Notes: a model not told the origin generated them from the letters alone. Shown: positions 15,927-25,631, counted from the first letter of the stretch. The stretch: DNA of 64,000 nucleotides from Methanomicrobiales archaeon (GCA_037137755.1 JBAXJR010000008.1:1-64000); one strand, 5' to 3'. Program-made: numbers and translations.

Positions 15927-17069
15927 TCACTGCCCATTTTGTTTTCGATAGAAATATAGCCCTATTGAGGCAATGACCACGACGGTCAAGATTAGAGCAA
16001 TACCTTGGACGACAATAAGCCTGTCAAAACCACCAGGAGCTCCCTGCACCGGACCAGGCGGAGGTGTCTTCGTTGTTGAGGTTGTCATTGCAGATGGAGA
16101 CACCGGGGAGGCAGGGCGGATGAAAAGACCATAGTCGCTGGAATGGGCAATCATCGTGGTCACGGTATGCGTTAGCGGGTCGGTTGTGGTTGACAATGCC
16201 TCCCAAAGGCCGGAAACCGGGTTGTAATACTGGATCAAAAGTTCCTGCCCGGAGATCTGCTTCCATTCCTCTGGTGTCGTTGTAATTTTCAATGCGATCG
16301 GAGGGGAGAACGTCGCTCCTGATGGTTCGATCTGGTAAGCATACCCGGTGAAGACAAACATCGATCCCTTCGGTACGGCGGGAACATCCGTTGTTGCAAT
16401 CCTGTTGAGATCAATATTGTTGACCGGCTGTCCATCCCGGTCGAGAATCCGGGTGTTGGTATCTATTGATAGTGCCGCAGACCTGTCATTTGAGACGAGG
16501 ACAACCGGTTCAGCAACGAGGTTATCGGGTGTTAACGGAATTGGACTGCCTGAAACGATAGTAACTACCGGAGGGCTTAACGGTAGTTCTAATTCCGGCA
16601 TTCCGACGATGTTTCCAAGGGGTGAAGCACCCCCGCCACCTCCGGAGGAACCAATTAAACTCTTTTCGCCCACTGCAAGGGTCTTGAAATTAAAATCAGG
16701 ACTTTCATACGTGTTACCTGCGGAATCGGATGAATTAACCACATAATAGTACGTTGTATCGTCAGATAATCCTCCCAGAGGTATCCTATGACTAAGGACC
16801 GAGTCACCGGGTATAGTTACATTAGACCCATAAGAGGTGTCCGTACCATAATAAACCGTGCTGTTTGTCAAACCGTTTGTCATCCAGGTAATATTCGCAG
16901 AGTTGGTTGTGATATCGATGGCCTCGATATTATATGCAGCAAGCAACACCCGGGCGGTTATCTCAACGGTTGCGGTTGCACCCCCCACATTAGTACATAA
17001 TATCCCGGGTGCGATAAGGAGACAGCAGCAGACAGCAATAAAAATAAAATGCTTTTTTCCTGCACTCAT
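15927..17069 (-). CDS. Membrane-anchored surface protein: short N-terminal strand, FN3 domain, Gly linker, ZU5/PGF-pre-PGF-like domain, TM anchor
   Basis: ATG at 17069 overlaps the upstream TGA (ATGA); signal peptide; FN3 motifs (ANITWMTN, STVYYG, GLSDDTTYYYVV); C-terminal TM plus RK. Confidence 0.8.
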   Translation of the reverse strand: MSAGKKHFIFIAVCCCLLIAPGILCTNVGGATATVEITARVLLAAYNIEAIDITTNSANITWMTNGLTNSTVYYGTDTSYGSNVTIPGDSVLSHRIPLGGLSDDTTYYYVVNSSDSAGNTYESPDFNFKTLAVGEKSLIGSSGGGGGASPLGNIVGMPELELPLSPPVVTIVSGSPIPLTPDNLVAEPVVLVSNDRSAALSIDTNTRILDRDGQPVNNIDLNRIATTDVPAVPKGSMFVFTGYAYQIEPSGATFSPPIALKITTTPEEWKQISGQELLIQYYNPVSGLWEALSTTTDPLTHTVTTMIAHSSDYGLFIRPASPVSPSAMTTSTTKTPPPGPVQGAPGGFDRLIVVQGIALILTVVVIASIGLYFYRKQNGQ

Positions 17070-18427
17070 TTCCGGTGCCTGGTAAAACAGCAGGAAACAA
17101 TAGCAGCAGCTATAAGAGCTCCAACACTTACAACGACCGGTAATGGTGCCTTTGTAGGAACCGCGGTGGCCGCTGAAGACGGGATCATAACCGCCCAGAC
17201 ACTCAGGTGATTCGTGGTAGTGGTGAGGGTCATGTCCTGGGTATTCACCTGCGTGGGTAGCATCGTCCACTCATTCTTTGCGGTATCATAGTAGGAGAGT
17301 TTCATTTTTGAAGGGTCACCACCTGCTGCCGCAAGGTCATCCGCTGAATAGGTAACCCGAACCGTGGCGTCCTTAGATAGAAGCCCGGATAGCCCGGATA
17401 TTTCAAAACTGGTGGCACCAGTTGTTGCACCAGCGGGTGCCGGTTGCAATTTATCGCGTGAATACGGTTTCAGTGTCACCACTACATCGCCAAGAACTGA
17501 ACCCTGTGGAAATAAAACTGTGTACCGCCCATCCGGGGATACGAGGGTACCTGCACTACCGGGAGTCAGCTTGATACTCGATTCGGTAACTGGGGGTATG
17601 TAAACCGTCTTCACGGCGAATGTCGTGGTCTTGTTGTCAAGGACCCGTCCGTCTTCGAGGAGTACCTTTGAATTCACCGTATACGTGCCGAGCGGCAGGT
17701 TTTTTATATCGGGCTGGATGATGAAACCCACCGTGTTGCCGGGGATGATGGCATATACTGACGGGGGCGTTGAATTGGTTGCGATAGTATTGCCACTCGC
17801 ATCCGTCACGAGGACCTCGTTCACGGTACGGTAATAGTGATAATTCCCGGTATTTTGGAGGGTGGTGGTGACCGTAATCGGCTGGCCGATAGTCACATCA
17901 CTTACATCCAGATTTGTAATGCTGCCGGTTTCAACCAAGGCGGTCCCTGAGTCTGTAATCAATACCGGGACTATGACCGCAGTCGTAAATGATTTTCCTG
18001 CTCCAGGCAGGGCGTGGATGTAAATAATTGCATACCTCCCACCCGCACCGACATTCTTCGGGAGGGTGATATTTGCATTGATATTTTGTGTTGTCCCGGG
18101 TTCAAGGTGGAGAGTGTTCTTGTCAAGCGTGATAAATGGTCTGGCTGTGTACGAGCTTAGATCATTTGCCGGGTCAAGCGTCGTATACCCTTTGTCCATA
18201 CTCTGGCCAAATCCCATCACTTCTACCTGCACATCAGTGGGATCCTCACCAGGGCCAATGCCCACGGTCATGGTATGTACAGCAACTTCACCAGGAGAAA
18301 TATTACCCATGTATTTTGCTCCCGAAACACTAATGGCCAAAACAGGTACCGCCGACAGCATCAGCACGATTACCAGTGCCGGCAGGAGGATTTTCGCAAG
18401 ATTGTATGTCTGACTATATTTTTTCAT
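17066..18427 (-). CDS. Membrane-anchored two-Ig-domain protein resembling DUF916/WxL-interacting (PapD-like) proteins, plus a ZU5-like domain
   Basis: Signal peptide; LEPGTTQNINANITLP...GGRYAIIY and LQNTGNYHY...IIPG patterns; C-terminal TKAPLP-TM-basic tail. Confidence 0.6.
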   Translation of the reverse strand: MKKYSQTYNLAKILLPALVIVLMLSAVPVLAISVSGAKYMGNISPGEVAVHTMTVGIGPGEDPTDVQVEVMGFGQSMDKGYTTLDPANDLSSYTARPFITLDKNTLHLEPGTTQNINANITLPKNVGAGGRYAIIYIHALPGAGKSFTTAVIVPVLITDSGTALVETGSITNLDVSDVTIGQPITVTTTLQNTGNYHYYRTVNEVLVTDASGNTIATNSTPPSVYAIIPGNTVGFIIQPDIKNLPLGTYTVNSKVLLEDGRVLDNKTTTFAVKTVYIPPVTESSIKLTPGSAGTLVSPDGRYTVLFPQGSVLGDVVVTLKPYSRDKLQPAPAGATTGATSFEISGLSGLLSKDATVRVTYSADDLAAAGGDPSKMKLSYYDTAKNEWTMLPTQVNTQDMTLTTTTNHLSVWAVMIPSSAATAVPTKAPLPVVVSVGALIAAAIVSCCFTRHRK

Positions 18428-18558
18428 CTGCTACCCCTTGTTGAAACACTTGATAAGCAAAAATAAAAAGGTTTTGGAAAAATCGAGGGGTTTTACGGTT
18501 TATCCCCCTGCACGTTCGTCCAAGTGATATTACGAAAAATATTTTGATGATGCTTTTT

Positions 18559-19527
18559 TCAGACCGGGCGAATACCTGACTGGTACCGCATGTCCTTGGT
18601 GAAGGTGTGGATTAACCCACTTGCCGTAGATGTTTCAGAATATGAAAGGCCTTCAACCTTCACCGGGATATAGCCGATGGGATCAGTTACATACCGTCGT
18701 GGCACTTCCTGTTCGATGGCTTCCTGCAGGTTGACCTTCATGAACGCACCCACGGTACCGCTTGCACCGGTACCACCGGACCCCGTAACCCCTTTAACAT
18801 TGACGCGGTAGGTCTCTGCTACCGGGATATCAACGGATGCGGAAATAAACCTCACGCCAGCCGTCGTCGAAATGGACCCGGTGGAAATATCTGCGCTGCT
18901 GCCTGACATCACGATGTTACAAAACGGCGGGAAGAAAGGACCTGCAGTACCCGTAAACGGGCAACATACCTGGTTTGCGGCAACAGTCTGGGCCCCCGCA
19001 CCGTCAAGGAGGAGATCCTCGCGGGTGGTCATCCGGCCACCATCCCCCCCGGTGAACGTGACGACCCTGTCTGCCCCGATGTTTTCTTCACCAGCGCTTT
19101 TATTCCCGGTGCTGATGCTCATCGTTTTCTGGTAGGTAAGGCTGCCGGATACGGCGGTCACGTCCTCATTATATCCGGCAGTATACTGGACTTCCCCGGG
19201 TGGGACGGGTGCACCTTTGTATCGTGAAATTACATAGGGATCCACAGAATAGCCATCTATACGTGGACCTGATGGACCAAGTGGGAACCATGCCCAAAGG
19301 AAGCCCCCGTTCTCCAACGGAGGGTCATTAAGCGTATGCGATCCCAGTTGCAGGCCTACCGAAGTACTGGTTGTAACGATTCCCTGCACATCCATCGAGG
19401 TAACGGTGGAAATTCCAACCAGTCCCGGGACTTCAGGTAACGGGAAGTCAGCATACACCGGTCCCGCGAATGAGATAACGAGGACTGCGACGATGATTAC
19501 CATAATAACACGAGGAGGGTTATTCAT
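18559..19527 (-). CDS. Paralogue of the Methanospirillum-type major sheath (amyloid) protein MspA
   Basis: Signal peptide, then GISTVTS, PGEVQYT, K-T-M-x-I-x-TGNK, EDLLLDGAG, CPF...PPFCNIV, QEA, LSYSETSTASG and a YQSG terminus, matching recalled hallmarks of the MspA family. Confidence 0.72.
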   Translation of the reverse strand: MNNPPRVIMVIIVAVLVISFAGPVYADFPLPEVPGLVGISTVTSMDVQGIVTTSTSVGLQLGSHTLNDPPLENGGFLWAWFPLGPSGPRIDGYSVDPYVISRYKGAPVPPGEVQYTAGYNEDVTAVSGSLTYQKTMSISTGNKSAGEENIGADRVVTFTGGDGGRMTTREDLLLDGAGAQTVAANQVCCPFTGTAGPFFPPFCNIVMSGSSADISTGSISTTAGVRFISASVDIPVAETYRVNVKGVTGSGGTGASGTVGAFMKVNLQEAIEQEVPRRYVTDPIGYIPVKVEGLSYSETSTASGLIHTFTKDMRYQSGIRPV

Positions 19528-19543
19528 TTTTGTCACCATTCCA

Positions 19544-20647
19544 CTATTGCACCGTGAACGCGCCATTAATTTTTTCAAATTGCCCATCGTTGTTTGTGAC
19601 AGTTAGATCCCATAAACCCGTCGGGGCACCTGAAGGGATTGTTATCGTGCCATCAATGGTTGTCGACGTTACATGTGTTACCGTTACCGGAATGACCGAA
19701 GCGCCTTTGGTTAGTTTTACTGCAACACCACTCCGGAAACCTTGCCCGGTTACCCCGACATCCATTGTTGACCCTCGCCCACCACTAAATGGTGGTCCGA
19801 AGGATCCGATCCCCGGTGCACTAGGGTACTTTACCCAGAATAGCAATGGTTTCGTGCCTGTTCCACCGTCAGGGTTCGTTACGGTGACATCCCACTTGCC
19901 TACCCCGGCACCCGCAAGGTTGAGGGTCCCGGTCATCCTGGTTGGTGTGGTGACACCTGTCACCGTCAAATTAATATTCGTGGAGCCGGTCCTGTTGAGG
20001 ACCGCCGTAGAATGCGGCAAAAAATTGAGACCTGACAGATCCGTAACCGTGACCGTGGAACCGGTAATACCTTCAGCCGGAACAATCCCGTTAACGACCG
20101 GTGCGGGACCCCCCTCCGCGAAGGCGATATACGTCACGATGACCTGGTACCGATGGCCCCCTTTCAATACAGGGTCACTAATGGCAACGGGTTGACGGAT
20201 TGTAAGGTGAATCTTTTCAGAATTAACTGCCGCAAGCCCGGACTCAATGAGCTGGTTGGAACCGCTTAGCACTACTGATGCCCCGGTATATTTTGAGAGA
20301 GAAGACGGCCCCGTAATATTCACTGCTGCCCCAAGGACATTAGTCCCGGTATATGCACCACCAGCGTCAGACTCCGCCATTCTTCCCACCGTGCCGGAAG
20401 TTTTTGCGAAATCCATAGCATCCTTGACTGAAACTGTCCACGTGGAAGAGATGGATGAGACGTTTAGAATAATGGAAGTCGAATTGATATTGGTTGTTCC
20501 CGGCGTAAATATCCAGTTGGAAATACCGGGCCCCTCAACCGAGATATCAATATCCGCTGCAATTACAGGTATTGTGGACAACAGTACAACTAGTAGTGCA
20601 CAAATAACTACTATTTTCACCTGGGACTTGTGAAAATGGTTTCTCAT
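19544..20647 (-). CDS. Secreted protein with a pilin/WxL-like N-terminal domain and two IPT/TIG-like Ig domains
   Basis: N-domain aligns with the 20900-21472 product (WTV-x-V-x-D, VG-K/R-MA, GASV-x-L, SDPVL, Y-x-(I/V)IVT); two repeats ending WDVTVTNPDG and WDLTVTNNDG. Confidence 0.7.
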   Translation of the reverse strand: MRNHFHKSQVKIVVICALLVVLLSTIPVIAADIDISVEGPGISNWIFTPGTTNINSTSIILNVSSISSTWTVSVKDAMDFAKTSGTVGRMAESDAGGAYTGTNVLGAAVNITGPSSLSKYTGASVVLSGSNQLIESGLAAVNSEKIHLTIRQPVAISDPVLKGGHRYQVIVTYIAFAEGGPAPVVNGIVPAEGITGSTVTVTDLSGLNFLPHSTAVLNRTGSTNINLTVTGVTTPTRMTGTLNLAGAGVGKWDVTVTNPDGGTGTKPLLFWVKYPSAPGIGSFGPPFSGGRGSTMDVGVTGQGFRSGVAVKLTKGASVIPVTVTHVTSTTIDGTITIPSGAPTGLWDLTVTNNDGQFEKINGAFTVQ

Positions 20648-20899
20648 TCCAGTTACCACTTGTAGAAAACTGGACATAGATGTAATAAAAATGTATTTGT
20701 CCCTTTTCGATGATTGGTGGGTAATGTTATCGTAGCAGCATCGAATTCTATATTCGCATCTGAATCCTTCGCCATCTAAACTGTTAGTAATAAGGGGCAC
20801 TTTCGGCATTTTTCAAGGATAAAGTTTATCGACTAGAGGCTTTTTATTTTTAGGATTGGAATTCAATAAAAAATAGGTATAGTATCACAATCGGCCAGA

Positions 20900-21472
20900 C
20901 TAAGATAGTCCTCCCGTGAATGTAACAATTATCCGGTATACATTGGGAGCGGTCAACACGGGATCGCTAGAGAGAATTTGCTGGGTATTCGTTATATGAA
21001 TCCCATTAAAGGTGCCGGCCCCAGATGCGTCGCTATTTCCTGTTTCAATCGTTTGTCCTCCACCATTCAAATTTACCGATGCCCCCGTGGCATGACTGGT
21101 TACACTTGCGGCTCCGACATTCAACGCAGTTGCCAAGTAACCGCTGTCTCCCCAAGTAACAGTAGTCCAATTCGCCATTTTCCCCACACTAGCTGGAAGT
21201 TTTCCACCATCAAGTTCGTCACTTACCTTGACAGTCCACCCTGGTTGATTAGATAGAACATCAAGGGTAACATTAGTCGAATCGACATTCGAATTGAGCA
21301 CTAATGGCCAGTCAGTAATGCTACCCGTCACTACTATAGCTATTGTTGCACCCGGATTTCCGGTGATTGTAGTAGATCCTGTGTTAGCCGCCGTCACAGG
21401 TCCAACCATAGCGACTACAACTATGACTAAAACACCTAATATAAGAAGTAATTTCGTTTTCATTTTTCCCAT
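20900..21472 (-). CDS. Small secreted beta-rich protein; putative major pilin/WxL-like subunit
   Basis: Sec signal peptide ending PVTA; Thr/Gly/Val/Asn-rich mature domain of about 162 aa with GWTVKVSD and terminal YRIIVTFTG strand; start at 21472 or 21463. Confidence 0.7.
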   Translation of the reverse strand: MGKMKTKLLLILGVLVIVVVAMVGPVTAANTGSTTITGNPGATIAIVVTGSITDWPLVLNSNVDSTNVTLDVLSNQPGWTVKVSDELDGGKLPASVGKMANWTTVTWGDSGYLATALNVGAASVTSHATGASVNLNGGGQTIETGNSDASGAGTFNGIHITNTQQILSSDPVLTAPNVYRIIVTFTGGLS

Positions 21473-22083
21473 CCGCCACCCATATATAAATAGGTAACAG
21501 TCCCTATTGCAATCAAGGTATATAATACTAATTATCAAGCAAATGTTCCAGACAAGCGGACTTTTATTATATGCCCGATAACTTCCGATGAGCGCGTGGA
21601 TCAGGTCATTCACACAATTTGGACTTTACAAGCCCTATTATGACTTAAAATTGAACTGCAAATTTCTAAAAAATCTTCGGACAATCGAATCTTTATTGGC
21701 AGTTATCTGCTGAGCTAATTTCTGTCCCTTCAACAACAACAAAAACTATACTTTCCAAAGATGTAGATCATCATCAGACCTTTTCAAGCATAAATCCGCC
21801 ATAAATAAGTCATATTTAAATATAGTGGGATAAATCATTAATTTCCTTTTTTTATTTGACGCATAGTCGCCAATAAAAGCATAGTAATTAATTTCTGCGC
21901 GTTGACCTAAAAACCTTTTGAGAGCTACATTCAACGATTTATACTTAAAACAGGGATAATTTAGATTATCAACACCCAATAGTGTGCGAGCCTGCTGGTC
22001 CTGATCGACCAAAGACAGATTCTCATACCCAAGCATGTGCTAATATGCCCATTATAGTTCTCATTTTAAAATCAGAAACTTTT

Positions 22084-22323
22084 TCACCGGTACCCTTTTG
22101 CAAGACTAAGCGCTTCCTGGATTTCGATATCTTTTTCCACGAGGTAAATGATATGGCGTTTTGTCCTCTCGATACCCCTCGTAGGGTTCAGGTGTTCCCG
22201 GATAGCCTCCCTGACAAATGCGCTGATATCTTCATACTCCCCGCTTTCAACGAGACTCTGGATCTTCTGCTTCAGTTCTTCACCAACCCTTACACGGATG
22301 GTATCATTCGGGGATTCAACCAA
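22084..22323 (-). CDS. Ribbon-helix-helix (CopG/Arc/MetJ) DNA-binding protein
   Basis: TIRVRVGEELKQKIQSLVESGEYEDISAFVREAIRE pattern; TTG start behind GGAGTGA. Confidence 0.8.
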   Translation of the reverse strand: MVESPNDTIRVRVGEELKQKIQSLVESGEYEDISAFVREAIREHLNPTRGIERTKRHIIYLVEKDIEIQEALSLAKGYR

Positions 22324-22373
22324 CGCCTACATCACTCCTACATTGTGTTCCATCTCATCCTATATATTACTAT

Positions 22374-22424
22374 GTTGTAGCACAACTTACTACAAAAGAG
22401 TAAGGTATCTCATTAGTTGTAGCA
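22374..22424. promoter_or_regulatory. Candidate operator upstream of the RHH gene
   Basis: Inverted repeat TTGTAG-N9-CTACAA (22375-22395) and direct repeat GTTGTAGCA (22374 and 22416) next to the TATA-like region. Confidence 0.45.
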
Positions 22425-22510
22425 AAAAATCAGGTTCACACCATCCGGGTGATCCAGGAAAGGGAATATAACAAGACTGTTTGAAAATCCAATAAACGAC
22501 TGAAAAATGG

Positions 22511-23299
22511 TTACTTTGGCTCGCCAACGGGCCGAATAACAAATTTGCAGTGGTCATCACCCATCGCATAACAACGGAGTTCTGTCGCCATGTGATCTGC
22601 CTTGAAATGCCCGGAAAAAACAGCTTCAAGAATGCCAGCGTCAAATGCACATGCCGGACGGCCCAGCAGGGGCAGGTCGTCGCACTCAAAACAATCATAC
22701 ACGATGAGCGTAATGGGAGAATTGTTTTCCACGACGATCTGGCCCAGGTTGTGCTCTTTCCAGAACTTCACCGTTTTATCGAGCAGTACAGAAAGGTCGG
22801 GGCTTGCGATGGCGGCATATAACCCCTGCCCCATGCGGAACCCGGCTTCCCTGAGGATCGGGTCGATATTGATCCCCTTGGACATCAGGGAGACCCTGAT
22901 CGTCCGGAACATCATCTTATAAAAGATGGAGGGATCACCGCCCTGGAGGAATGCGGCGACCATCTGGTCCGATTCATCATCGTTACATTCTGTTTCCGGC
23001 GATATTTCCCCGAGAAACCGGGACCGGATGTAAAAAATCTTCCTCCTTGAGTCCGCGAGGTCTGGTTTCTCACCAATAATCCCCTCCTTCAATAAAGACC
23101 TCAGGTGTGCAGAGACCGTCGACTTGGCTTTTTGTGTCAACCCGACGATCTCCTGGAACGATAACTCCCTGCCCCGGAGTACTGCGAGGATCTTTACACG
23201 GACAGGCGACCCAACTGTCCGGATACCATCTTCAGTAGCGAACAGTCCGATAGTCGGGGGTGATCCCGTTCGCGCAGAAATCTCCACTTCAGCCTTCAT
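22511..23299 (-). CDS. ArsR-type HTH plus V4R-domain transcriptional regulator
   Basis: N-terminal HTH (KAKSTVSAHL); V4R motifs CFEC, PACAFDAG and ELRCYAMGDDHC. Confidence 0.88.
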   Translation of the reverse strand: MKAEVEISARTGSPPTIGLFATEDGIRTVGSPVRVKILAVLRGRELSFQEIVGLTQKAKSTVSAHLRSLLKEGIIGEKPDLADSRRKIFYIRSRFLGEISPETECNDDESDQMVAAFLQGGDPSIFYKMMFRTIRVSLMSKGINIDPILREAGFRMGQGLYAAIASPDLSVLLDKTVKFWKEHNLGQIVVENNSPITLIVYDCFECDDLPLLGRPACAFDAGILEAVFSGHFKADHMATELRCYAMGDDHCKFVIRPVGEPK

Positions 23300-23456: not shown

Positions 23457-24767
23457 TTGATCCAGATGGAAGATGAAGTCGCTCGTATACGGGATATCCT
23501 GAAGGAGCACCCAAAAGGGATGACAATCGAAGAGATCTCCCGCCTTTTACCGTTAAATCGGACCTCAACAGCTAAATACTTAAATACCCTCCTTATATCA
23601 GGGCAGGCTGATATGAGAACATATGGCCGGGCCAAAGTATTCTCACTAATCCAGAGAGTCCCGTTATCCAACCTGATGAGCCTGTCATCAGAACTTATCC
23701 TGATCCTGGACCGGGAACATACCATTAGCTATATGAACAGCCAGTTTTTACAGGTCTTTCACCTGACAAAACCGGAGATCGCCGGAAAAAAGATTGAACA
23801 TACACCCCTCTCATACTACCTCCCTCCCCAGTTCCTTGACATGATTGGAGGTGCATTTGAAGGGAAAGAGAGTGTTGGAGAGCAACATATCAAGATCCGG
23901 GACCTGGACTATTATTTCATTTCCAAACTGGTCCCCATGGTCTTTGACAACGGAAATGGCGGTCTTGCGATAATCCTTGAAGATATTACTCAGTTAAAAG
24001 AATATCAGCTGCACCTTGAAAACATTGTAGAAGAACGCACACGGGAGATTATAAAAACAAATGAAAACCTCGAGCAGGAGATCGCCGACCACGAGGTCGC
24101 TAGGAAAGCCCTGGGTGTCGTAAACAACAAGCTCAACCTCCTGGCCAGCGTCACCCGGCACGACATCCTCAACCAGATCACAGCAATATCGGGATACCTT
24201 CAGCTCCTTGACAATGAATGTCCCACCAATCCAAAGGTGCCCCCTTATATCCAGGGCATCGAAAAGGCCATCAGCACAATTCAGCGGCAGATCACATTTA
24301 CCCGGGACTACAAAGACCTCGGATTGAAATCACCGGAATGGCAGCGCGTAGAGGACGTAATCCAGCGGGCCGCTTTGCTACACCCGCTCCCGCGTGTCAA
24401 TCTTCTTGTAGAAACCGGGAAGATCGAGATTTTAGCAGATCCGTTCCTTGAAAAGGTTTTTATCAATATCTTCGATTACTCGTTACACCATGGAGAGAAC
24501 GTAACCGGGATCACGGTCACCTTCCATGAACAGGGGGAGAACGGGGTCATCCTGATTACTGATAACGGCATGGGAATCCCGGTATCAGGAAAAGAAAGTA
24601 TATTCGAATATTCAGGTAAAGAAGCAGGTTTTAACCTTTTCCTTTCCCGTGAAATCCTCTCGATAACCGGGATTTCAATCAGGGAAAATGGTGAGGAAGG
24701 AAAAGGCTCAAGGTTTGAGATCCTGGTACCGGGTAGCATCTGGCGCACGGGAAACAATTCTGAATAA
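23457..24767 (+). CDS. HTH-PAS-histidine kinase-like protein with a degenerate ATPase domain
   Basis: N-terminal HTH (LNRTSTAKYL), PAS, H-box TRHDILN, and HATPase with altered N and G2 boxes. Confidence 0.85.
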   Translation: MIQMEDEVARIRDILKEHPKGMTIEEISRLLPLNRTSTAKYLNTLLISGQADMRTYGRAKVFSLIQRVPLSNLMSLSSELILILDREHTISYMNSQFLQVFHLTKPEIAGKKIEHTPLSYYLPPQFLDMIGGAFEGKESVGEQHIKIRDLDYYFISKLVPMVFDNGNGGLAIILEDITQLKEYQLHLENIVEERTREIIKTNENLEQEIADHEVARKALGVVNNKLNLLASVTRHDILNQITAISGYLQLLDNECPTNPKVPPYIQGIEKAISTIQRQITFTRDYKDLGLKSPEWQRVEDVIQRAALLHPLPRVNLLVETGKIEILADPFLEKVFINIFDYSLHHGENVTGITVTFHEQGENGVILITDNGMGIPVSGKESIFEYSGKEAGFNLFLSREILSITGISIRENGEEGKGSRFEILVPGSIWRTGNNSE

Positions 24768-24831: not shown

Positions 24832-25389
24832 TTACTTTTTTACAATATCCACCATCTGGATTGTGAATACAAGGTCCTGGCCTGCAAGAGGATGGTTCAT
24901 ATCAACCGTTACCGTGGTTTCATTTGAAGCAATAATCGGGAATCGCCCGACGCTTCCATCAGGGAGGGTTACAGTGATATACGTAATTTTCCCTGGTTTG
25001 GGCTGGTAGTCTGCAAGTGCTCCGGTTTTATCAGTAGTGATAATAAGTTCCTGCCGCTTGAGGCCGTATGCCTGGTCTGCCGGGACCTTTACAGTCTTAT
25101 TCTGCCCGACGCTCATCCCGATCACGGCGTTATCAAAACCTTGAATGACCCTTCCTGATCCAGCCACAAATTCTATCGGAGTCCCATTCAGCGAGGACTC
25201 GAACTGTGTTCCGTCTGAGGCCAGAGATGCTGTATAATGGACCTTCACGGTATCATTTGGCGCTACGACTACTGGCTTCTGCGAGGTGCACCCTGCCATA
25301 AGAAGGGCTGCAAATAGGAAAATAATTGTCATCCCGAGAAAAAAACGGCCGTATTGGCCTTTTCTCCCGTTCCTGCTGTTGCCTGACAT
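24832..25389 (-). CDS. FKBP-type peptidyl-prolyl isomerase (SlyD-like) with a lipoprotein-like signal
   Basis: VKVHYT, VIQGFDNA, AYG and DMNHPLAGQDL motifs; LMAGC lipobox. Confidence 0.88.
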   Translation of the reverse strand: MSGNSRNGRKGQYGRFFLGMTIIFLFAALLMAGCTSQKPVVVAPNDTVKVHYTASLASDGTQFESSLNGTPIEFVAGSGRVIQGFDNAVIGMSVGQNKTVKVPADQAYGLKRQELIITTDKTGALADYQPKPGKITYITVTLPDGSVGRFPIIASNETTVTVDMNHPLAGQDLVFTIQMVDIVKK

Positions 25390-25631
25390 AGTACTACATT
25401 GTATTGATCGGATAAGAGATCTGTGCTCCACGATTCATACATTCCTTATGATCCAACAAAAGACCAGACTTTGGACCCGTGGAGAAATGCAGGTTAGGCA
25501 GAAAATCGAGTGAAGGAAAACAAACACTAGGGGAATTTGCACCGGAATGTTGTCGAAGTACCCCATACACCGGGCTAGGGTCACGTCTCGAATTTTATAT
25601 AGCCGGAGGAAGAACTATACTACTGTTTATC

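Follow-up and report, generated by a model that had tools for sequence, protein, structure and literature searches.

Positions 15927-21472 of a 64,000-nucleotide stretch of DNA from a Methanomicrobiales archaeon (GCA_037137755.1 JBAXJR010000008.1:1-64000; the whole stretch is referred to below as the window) carry five co-oriented genes, g1 to g5, that we believe, with moderate confidence, to encode an archaeal chaperone-and-pilin surface assembly system working like the WxL/Elr and Pam pili of bacteria. The module is real, conserved and expressed. The chaperone-subunit part of this reading is well supported by structure models, in which the membrane-anchored product of g4 resembles known pilus chaperones and pairs with the small product of g1, and the fiber part, in which copies of g1 would be strung together, is plausible. 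An earlier note on the same DNA had proposed an usher-less, WxL-like donor-strand pilus, and of that proposal the chaperone, its pairing with g1 and the linkage of the two genes have held up, whereas polymerization of g1 by strand exchange is something that we infer.

Fold of g4 and Model of Its Complex with g1

The gene g4 (17066-18427, minus strand) encodes a chaperone-like protein with two immunoglobulin (Ig)-like domains, similar in design to the WxL interacting proteins (WxLIP) of Gram-positive bacteria. Its AlphaFold2 model, computed with 41 homologues and with a mean predicted local distance difference test (pLDDT) score of 86.8, consists of Ig-like domains at residues ~30-140 and 165-272, a third beta domain, or stalk, at ~280-420 and a terminal helix at 431-452, in keeping with the membrane-anchored, two-Ig protein that had been read here previously. 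The top three Foldseek matches to this model are all WxLIP of E. faecium (9i1y_B, E 1.2e-12; 9i25_C, 1.7e-12; 9i1y_A, 4.2e-12), with target template modeling (TM) scores of 0.59-0.63 over 235-258 columns, and they lead whatever comes next by approximately four orders of magnitude. The chaperone-usher chaperones that follow are CsuC (5d6h, 9.8e-9) and then CfaA, FaeE, CupB2, SfaE and EcpB (E 1e-8 to 1e-6). Unrelated multi-Ig proteins, among them C5a peptidase, complement and ciliary proteins, are interleaved with the chaperone-usher matches. Sequence profiles give a fainter picture of the same kind. Pfam model PF06030 (WxLIP_PGBD/DUF916) produces a sub-threshold match in a scan of the g4 protein (E 0.14) and is the commonest Pfam match among the 41 homologues (22 of them at E<=0.1, the best at 1.9e-4), PF11797 (DUF3324) matches 1 of the 41, and a g4 profile aligned to EfmWxLIP1 spans the whole DUF916 region, but at an E of 0.4. 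The PapD-type Pfam family (PF00345) gives no match to g4 at E<=1. Taken at the level of predicted structure, g4 is well supported as a relative of WxLIP and of the chaperones of chaperone-usher pili.

The complex was modeled from residues 30-280 of g4 and two copies of residues 29-190 of g1, in three runs and with three controls. The interaction prediction score from aligned errors (ipSAE) is 0.82 for g4-g1 (0.80-0.84 over the runs) and 0.00-0.10 for the controls, the runs share at least 96% of their contacts, and the pLDDT of the partners is at least 87. Of 80 solved complexes 58 attained the mark that we apply to ipSAE, as did 2 of 110 mismatched pairs, in a calibration that did not include user-supplied alignments or the three-chain set-up, both of which were used for g4-g1. 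Residues 149-154 of g4 lie along residues 184-189 of g1, its last strand, in a register in which the residue numbers of both rise together, so that the two strands are parallel in the model; residues 33-38 of g4 additionally touch residues 43-45 of g1. Donation by g4 of a strand, for which residues 145-154 are the candidate, in parallel to the last strand of g1 is thus well supported as a modeled interaction.

Two observations concern the C-terminal part of g4. Short homologues of 314-334 residues (L036/G020, L038/G146 and L021/G047) are without the third domain, and at their end a P-G-F motif precedes a hydrophobic stretch and basic residues, a tail that may be a PGF-CTERM, archaeosortase-like signal and may indicate lipid anchoring in some lineages; PF18204 matches 1 of the 41 homologues (E 0.018). 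The third domain itself (~280-420) shows weak similarity to the C-terminal domain of g5 (17066-17590 and 15927-16400; pairwise E 0.008), and many of the order's large surface proteins (1000+ residues) have the same domain ahead of their membrane anchor. This domain may be a common stalk module.

Conservation and Linkage of g1 and g4

In a survey of 151 genomes of the order, based on matches to the two N-terminal domains of g4, we find 28 g4-type places, 22 of which have a g1-profile match within 3 kb, so that the co-occurrence of the two genes is indeed conserved. Counted from the other side, 32 of the 34 g1-profile matches at E<=1e-9 fall within 5 kb of a g4-type match. Within the window g1 and g2 are 1.1-2.5 kb from g4 (chaperone and pilin genes within 10 kb). 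The linkage of g1 and g4 is tight across genera, and for this reason the logic of an operon holds. Sequence identity within the genus is 79-80% for g4 as against 43% for g1, a contrast that fits an assembly factor that is conserved and a subunit that is exposed and evolves quickly. The g4 type also extends past the order: four genomes from three other families of the phylum have full-length matches, and in one more family 15 of 54 genomes have partial ones.

The Subunit g1, Its Paralogue g2 and the Anchored Protein g5

The product of g1 (20900-21463 or, from an alternative start, 20900-21472, minus strand) is our candidate major pilin. It belongs to a family of 182 representatives at 50% identity, 60 of these at E<=1e-10, for which there is no Pfam model; Pfam, NCBIfam and PHROGs gave nothing usable, and the g1 profile run against PDB sequences returned chance matches only, for example antibody light chains. 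The AlphaFold2 model, with a pLDDT of 93.5, is a beta-sandwich, consistent with the small beta-rich subunit that had been predicted. Donor-strand subunits make up most of the 43 Foldseek matches listed (E 2e-3 to 7e-2), which include CsuA/B, SafA, Caf1, Fim, Pap, CFA/I (CfaB), CupE and the environmental fibril TLP-1a. Among archaeal proteins there are weak fold matches to the cannula protein CanA (9h8b, E 1.1e-2) and to the Pyrobaculum bundling pilus (7ueg, E 2e-2), and a further weak match is to 7uii (E 3.6e-2).

The relationship of g1 to the WxL domain is less direct than that of g4 to WxLIP. No member of the g1 alignment matches the WxL model PF13731 at E<=0.01, nor does any match the TasA/camelysin Pfam families at this threshold, and g1, having no PF13731 match, therefore cannot be filed as a WxL domain. 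In the Atlas the nearest Pfam-bearing cluster to that of g1 is WxL (score 0.94, 180 shared features), which we treat as only a lead. A second lead, seen in the family alignment, is a W-x-L at positions 55-57, where 42 of 94 sequences have the W and 73 the L, and a W-x-V at 79-81, where 67 of the 94 have the W, and these motifs might link the family to WxL. Ahead of its sandwich g1 has a 13-residue N-terminal extension ending in I-T-G-N-P; across the family this becomes the motif [IV]-[TS]-G-N-[P/I/V], with 78, 66, 69, 66 and 72 of 94 sequences agreeing at the five positions.

The second gene, g2 (19544-20647, minus strand), is confirmed as a paralogue of the first: g1 and residues 1-175 of g2 share 33% identity (pairwise E 4e-19), and the g1-family profile matches g2 at an E of 5.1e-40. 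The g1-type domain is followed by two Ig-like repeats of ~85 residues each, which had been assigned as IPT/TIG domains, an assignment that we do not recover, the only Pfam matches being sub-threshold ones to MG2 and DUF7498 and the NCBIfam match a sub-threshold CoaZ repeat (26.6 bits against a cut-off of 30). In the alignment of the two proteins g2 has a gap opposite the extension of g1 (g1 residues ~26-38), and g2 is a candidate acceptor-only subunit, at a tip or as a cap. Larger members of the g1 family, 10 of which were scanned, have variable N-terminal domains and the g1-type domain last, the N-terminal payloads being PKD, MAM, Gly_rich_2 with IPT/TIG, Ice_binding, NosD/Kelch and beta-propellers. 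In two genomes the g4-type gene has a large neighbor in which an ice-binding-like domain (PF11999) is fused to a C-terminal g1-type domain (L015 7474-8727 and L026 4872-6059, both minus strand); an ice-binding-like payload on a pilus-tip-like protein is unusual.

The last gene, g5 (15927-17069, minus strand), encodes the membrane-anchored FN3 protein that had been anticipated, with a Pur_ac_phosph_N match at E 6.4e-9 to the FN3-type domain and a terminal helix. Its layout is an N-terminal beta-strand-like segment, the FN3 domain, the stalk domain and the C-terminal membrane helix. In homologues of g5 the mature N-terminus carries, ahead of FN3, a strand with the pattern [IVL]-[ST]-[GA]-x-[VIL], similar to the motif in the extension of g1. 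Of 25 loci that were fetched, 12 have next to g4 a g5-like gene, which usually comes immediately after g4 and resembles the first 130 residues of g5; a 13th locus was found by tblastn only. We regard g5 as a candidate membrane-anchored base or terminator.

The N-termini of all five products appear Sec-like by inspection, a charged stretch being followed by a hydrophobic one and this by a small-x-small site ahead of the mature part, and the class III signal pattern of archaeal type IV pilins is found in none of them, the hydrophobic stretch preceding the small-x-small site. Both observations agree with what the earlier note had stated about signals. Conservation of the g1 family begins after the small-x-small site. 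At their C-termini g4 and g5 have a hydrophobic helix and then basic residues, as befits the membrane anchoring claimed for both. There is no LPxTG in the five products and no usher-sized gene in the cluster.

Proposed Assembly and Its Alternatives

In the assembly pathway that we propose all five products would be exported by Sec, as their N-termini suggest. Held by its C-terminal helix, g4 would bind newly arrived g1-type domains and lay its strand 145-154 parallel to their last strand, and the N-terminal extension of an incoming g1 would then displace the chaperone strand, giving rise to a linear g1 fiber. Because g2 has no extension it could only accept a strand and would come to rest at the distal end, where its two Ig-like domains would be displayed. 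The donor-like strand, FN3 domain and helix of g5 would cap the base and tether the fiber to the membrane, in the place of ElrB/PamR. An acceptor-only g2, a donor-and-acceptor g1 and a donor-only, anchored g5 would amount to the three roles of a donor-strand fiber that grows from its base.

A number of results weigh against this pathway. The multimer model upholds the g4-g1 strand pairing but goes no further, since the list of confident interface residues names none from the second g1 copy, and strand exchange from subunit to subunit is consequently unsupported by any computation here. Many chaperone-subunit complexes of chaperone-usher systems have already been solved, and the complex score may partly reflect the memory that the model has of solved complexes, 9i25 included. 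The extension of g1 is rich in threonine and contains just one large hydrophobic residue, an unusual composition for donor strands, and some g1 homologues adjacent to g4, such as that of locus L017, are without it. The expectation that g1 would find donor-strand pilins by fold is borne out by the majority of its Foldseek matches, but these are weak (best E 2e-3, none at E<=0.001), and among the matches listed the WxL chain of 9i25 does not appear. PF13731 and PF11797 each match nothing in the host genome at E<=10, and g4 itself is below Pfam thresholds: when the genome was searched, PF06030 scored it at 13.6 bits (E 0.1), where 27.3 would be needed. At six of the 28 g4-type places no g1-type neighbor can be detected, all six being short divergent forms (314-334 residues) or second copies. 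Finally, no filament has been seen in this lineage.

The sole interaction supported here, that of g4 with one copy of g1, also fits a static display platform in which g4 would permanently hold g1, g2 and, elsewhere than in this genome, larger proteins with a terminal g1-type domain at the membrane by strand complementation and no polymer would form. Such a display role was proposed for WxLIP in the older 'WxL interacting protein' model (Hassan et al. 2023, PMC10599100; this and the other publications cited below are represented by extracts of their text), and the many large, multidomain members of the g1 family, with the g1-type domain last, are what a display anchor might be expected to carry. 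That model has, however, been revised for the bacterial system, where the extracts describe ElrD filaments by cryo-EM and ElrE-dependent ladders (bioRxiv 10.64898/2026.10.17.759780). In the present locus the placement of g1 first and ahead of a T-tract, the paralogue with no extension and the anchored protein bearing a donor strand fit sequential assembly better, and we judge static display to be unlikely, though by no means negligible.

The two remaining explanations dispense with the chaperone altogether. The similarity of g1 to cannula and bundling-pilus subunits (the 9h8b and 7ueg matches given above), and the fact that published archaeal donor-strand filaments are described, in the extracts at hand, as forming with no chaperone, would suit a matrix fiber of the TasA, bundling-pilus, thread or cannula type, in which g1 self-assembles and g4 is an unrelated membrane adhesin that happens to lie nearby. 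It is difficult to reconcile such a fiber with the linkage of g1 and g4 across genera, with a fold of g4 that is that of a pilus chaperone, with a confident modeled insertion of a g4 strand into g1 where controls score 0.00-0.10, or with the failure of every member of the g1 alignment to match the TasA/camelysin families, and we consider it very unlikely. One might also suppose that the genes specify unrelated secreted or anchored envelope proteins, S-layer accessories and adhesins for instance, that share only their regulation and whose matches are generic Ig-like ones. Folds of the Ig-like and FN3 kinds are widespread and readily turned up in number by Foldseek, the g4 matches do include C5a peptidase as well as complement and ciliary proteins, and g3 demonstrates that unrelated surface genes can enter the cluster; nevertheless, a generic resemblance would not place WxLIP some four orders of magnitude ahead of the next match, nor 32 of 34 strong g1-type matches beside a g4-type gene, and the controls of the complex fail, all of which makes this explanation highly improbable. 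The chaperone-and-pilin system with sequential assembly is thus the reading that we carry forward.

RNA-Library Contigs

Expression can be examined in contigs of a single freshwater sample, for which there are two metatranscriptome libraries; such contigs give no expression level, transcript ends or strand. These contigs cover g1 (20876-21475) and nearly all of g4 (17005-18426) with no mismatch and also cover parts of g3 and g2; one X11 RNA-library contig has 11 differing letters. Coverage is uneven and follows gene borders, which argues against plain carry-over of DNA. There is none over g5 beyond 17005, over most of g2 or over the intergenic stretches, which proves no absence of transcript. 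Contig ends near the start of g1 are at 21469 and 21475. Downstream of g1, RNA contigs end at 20876 and 20884 in two runs, both from one sample, near the T-tract discussed below; DNA contigs of the same sample break there too, and for this reason we do not claim a terminator in the spacer and regard the contig ends as a weak hint.

Gene Layout, g3 and Genomic Surroundings

The five open reading frames lie on the minus strand, so that the co-oriented gene order of the earlier note is confirmed, as is its translational coupling of g5 to g4, the stop codon of g4 and the start codon of g5 overlapping in ATGA. For g1 a start at 21463, the second ATG, giving 187 residues, is more likely than the one at 21472 (190 residues), because database copies start at residue 4. 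Upstream, the region 21464-21530 (minus strand) is a candidate promoter as judged from TATA-like stretches at 21490-21483 and 21527-21518. The spacer between g1 and g2 (20648-20899, minus strand), described previously as some 250 bp of AT-rich sequence with T-tracts, is 252 bp long with a GC content of 0.37-0.40, compared with ~0.46-0.59 inside the genes. It contains a T6 tract at 20873-20868, ~27 nt past the g1 stop, and a TATA-like stretch before g2, and may hold a terminator and an internal promoter.

The third gene, g3 (18559-19539, minus strand), is a secreted member of a multi-copy, lineage-specific family with several invariant residues, including two cysteines and a C-P-F motif. The family has 12 profile matches in the host genome (among them on contigs C5, C24, C33 and C57) and at least 15 copies, often in tandem arrays, in some relatives of related genera. 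Of 29 genomes of the host family 14 contain it; among 121 genomes from the other five families one has it, as a fragment. Only in the same-genus genomes G001 and G005 does g3 lie between g2 and g4, and g3 is probably a lineage-specific passenger outside the conserved module. Searches of Pfam, PDB and Atlas gave no lead, PDB sequences returning chance matches only, and the designation of g3 as an MspA-like sheath protein is unsupported. The MspA paralogues of M. hungatei are multi-copy, with two homologues in Methanolinea, and the three longest M. hungatei homologues have 275-370 residues, signal peptides and at least one cysteine, according to the extracts of Christensen et al. (2018, PMC6242892). 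Both g3 and MspA are thus multi-copy, secreted and cysteine-bearing, a likeness that comes from descriptions only and is suggestive. At locus L013 (G005:C4, 2489-7746) the homologues of g5, g3 and g2 are each split or truncated relative to the genes of the window, reflecting either decay of the locus or frameshift errors in the assembly.

Genes in the surroundings of the locus encode methenyl-tetrahydromethanopterin cyclohydrolase, Orc1/Cdc6, tRNA-Val and an ArsR-V4R regulator, and we therefore place the locus on a methanogen chromosome. The closest named relatives of the products are from Methanoregula sp. or Methanoregulaceae, so that the host is not Methanospirillum, and the sheathed methanogen previously assumed gives way to one for which a sheath is not established. 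Just upstream of g1, at 22084-23299 (minus strand) and 23457-24767 (plus strand), are genes for a small ribbon-helix-helix protein, a regulator with ArsR helix-turn-helix (HTH) and V4R domains and an HTH-PAS-histidine kinase. In the same-genus genomes G001 and G005 the locus likewise has the ArsR-V4R gene at its side, so that this regulator may act on the cluster. A gene at 24832-25431 (minus strand), also near the locus, specifies a peptidyl-prolyl isomerase of the FKBP type whose N-terminus has a hydrophobic segment and then a cysteine; the enzyme may be an extracytoplasmic folding factor.

Implications

Chaperone-assisted donor-strand exchange, first known from the chaperone-usher pili of Gram-negative bacteria, has been regarded as a bacterial invention. 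In 2026 it was extended to the WxL/Elr pili that Gram-positive bacteria make and to the Pam pili of the candidate phyla radiation (CPR), each reported, in the extracts, as restricted to its group (bioRxiv 10.64898/2026.10.17.759780; 10.64898/2026.03.03.709456). We see the chances as evenly balanced that methanogens build a chaperone-dependent donor-strand fiber of their own and that g4 shares ancestry with WxLIP/ElrE and perhaps with PamC/D. Were this so, the chaperone-pilin module would not be confined to bacteria, chaperone-assisted strand donation would span both domains, and the module would be either ancient or have moved between them. It would further have been adapted to an envelope that has neither peptidoglycan nor an outer membrane, with an FN3 base in place of the sortase and PGF-CTERM-type anchors in some homologues. 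Many 'hypothetical' surface proteins of methanogens, including those with PKD, ice-binding-like, beta-helix and propeller domains, would gain a function, and the means by which freshwater methanogens not yet in culture fasten themselves to particles or syntrophic partners would become easier to approach.

Comparison with Known Systems

Archaea are already known to make donor-strand filaments, namely the threads of Sulfolobus, the bundling pili of Pyrobaculum, the cannulae of Pyrodictium and the Tat-dependent pili of haloarchaea, all of them described as chaperone-free in the extracts at hand. The present locus is like these in that a non-type-IV filament would be built of beta-sandwich subunits by strand donation, and in the weak matches of g1 to CanA and the bundling pilin; it is unlike them in that it has a chaperone-like gene, which surpasses the other components in conservation and in tightness of linkage, and in that export appears to be of the Sec and not the Tat type. 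No archaeal chaperone of this type is described in the titles, abstracts or passages that our literature search found, which agrees with the statement of the earlier note that no such system had been reported in Methanomicrobiales.

With chaperone-usher pili the locus shares the fold matches of g4 to CsuC, CfaA, FaeE, CupB2, SfaE and EcpB, the weaker ones of g1 to CsuA/B, SafA, Caf1, Fim and CfaB, and a modeled chaperone strand that runs parallel to the last strand of the subunit. It differs from them in having no usher and no outer membrane, in a chaperone that is anchored in the membrane and in the lack of a PapD Pfam match at E<=1.

The Pam pilus of Candidatus Mycosynbacter amalyticus, a CPR bacterium, is made of the pilins PamA/B with the chaperones PamC/D and the protein PamR (Troman et al., bioRxiv 10.64898/2026.03.03.709456). 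In the extracts of this report the pilins are given as exclusive to CPR bacteria, the chaperones as membrane-anchored through a C-terminal helix, and PamR as an anchored FnIII protein that has an extra N-terminal beta-strand and whose proposed role is to fasten the pilus to the membrane. The layout of g5 is that of PamR, and the Pam cell is described as having neither an outer membrane nor an usher, so that there is likeness in setting as well; the relation of the Pam system to this locus is by architecture only.

The WxL/Elr pilus of Enterococcus faecalis and other Bacillota comprises ElrA-E, with the WxLIP ElrE (DUF916-DUF3324-transmembrane segment) as its chaperone, and in the extracts is reported from Bacillota only, on the basis of 4,698 genera represented by a single proteome each (Sleutel et al., bioRxiv 10.64898/2026.10.17.759780). 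Foldseek matches of ElrE described there are CsuC, CfaA, Caf1M and EcpB, a list that has much in common with that of g4. The same extracts describe parallel pairing for ElrE-ElrD and for chaperone-usher chaperones, and WxL tip adhesins in which a variable payload precedes a constant attachment module that comes last. A donor-only, anchored role has been proposed for ElrB as well as for PamR (bioRxiv 10.64898/2026.10.17.759780; 10.64898/2026.03.03.709456). The points in common with our locus are accordingly many: a membrane-anchored, two-Ig chaperone with a C-terminal helix, WxLIP being the best match of g4; a strand at the domain boundary of g4 that is modeled parallel to the last strand of g1; small subunits alongside large modular proteins that end in a subunit domain; an anchored protein, g5, that like ElrB has a donor-like N-terminal strand; and tight clustering of chaperone and pilin genes.

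There are differences also. The present host is archaeal, g1 has no WxL Pfam match and g4 remains below Pfam thresholds, anchoring is by the membrane helix of an FN3 protein and not by an LPxTG-sortase link to peptidoglycan, and g4 has an extra stalk domain, with some homologues carrying the PGF-CTERM-like signal. Those features by which WxL systems are defined in sequence (matches above Pfam thresholds, a WxL domain, LPxTG) are thus absent here, and those of structure and architecture are present for the chaperone. The Elr/WxL pilus is the closest known system to this locus, with the Pam and chaperone-usher pili as its wider kin.

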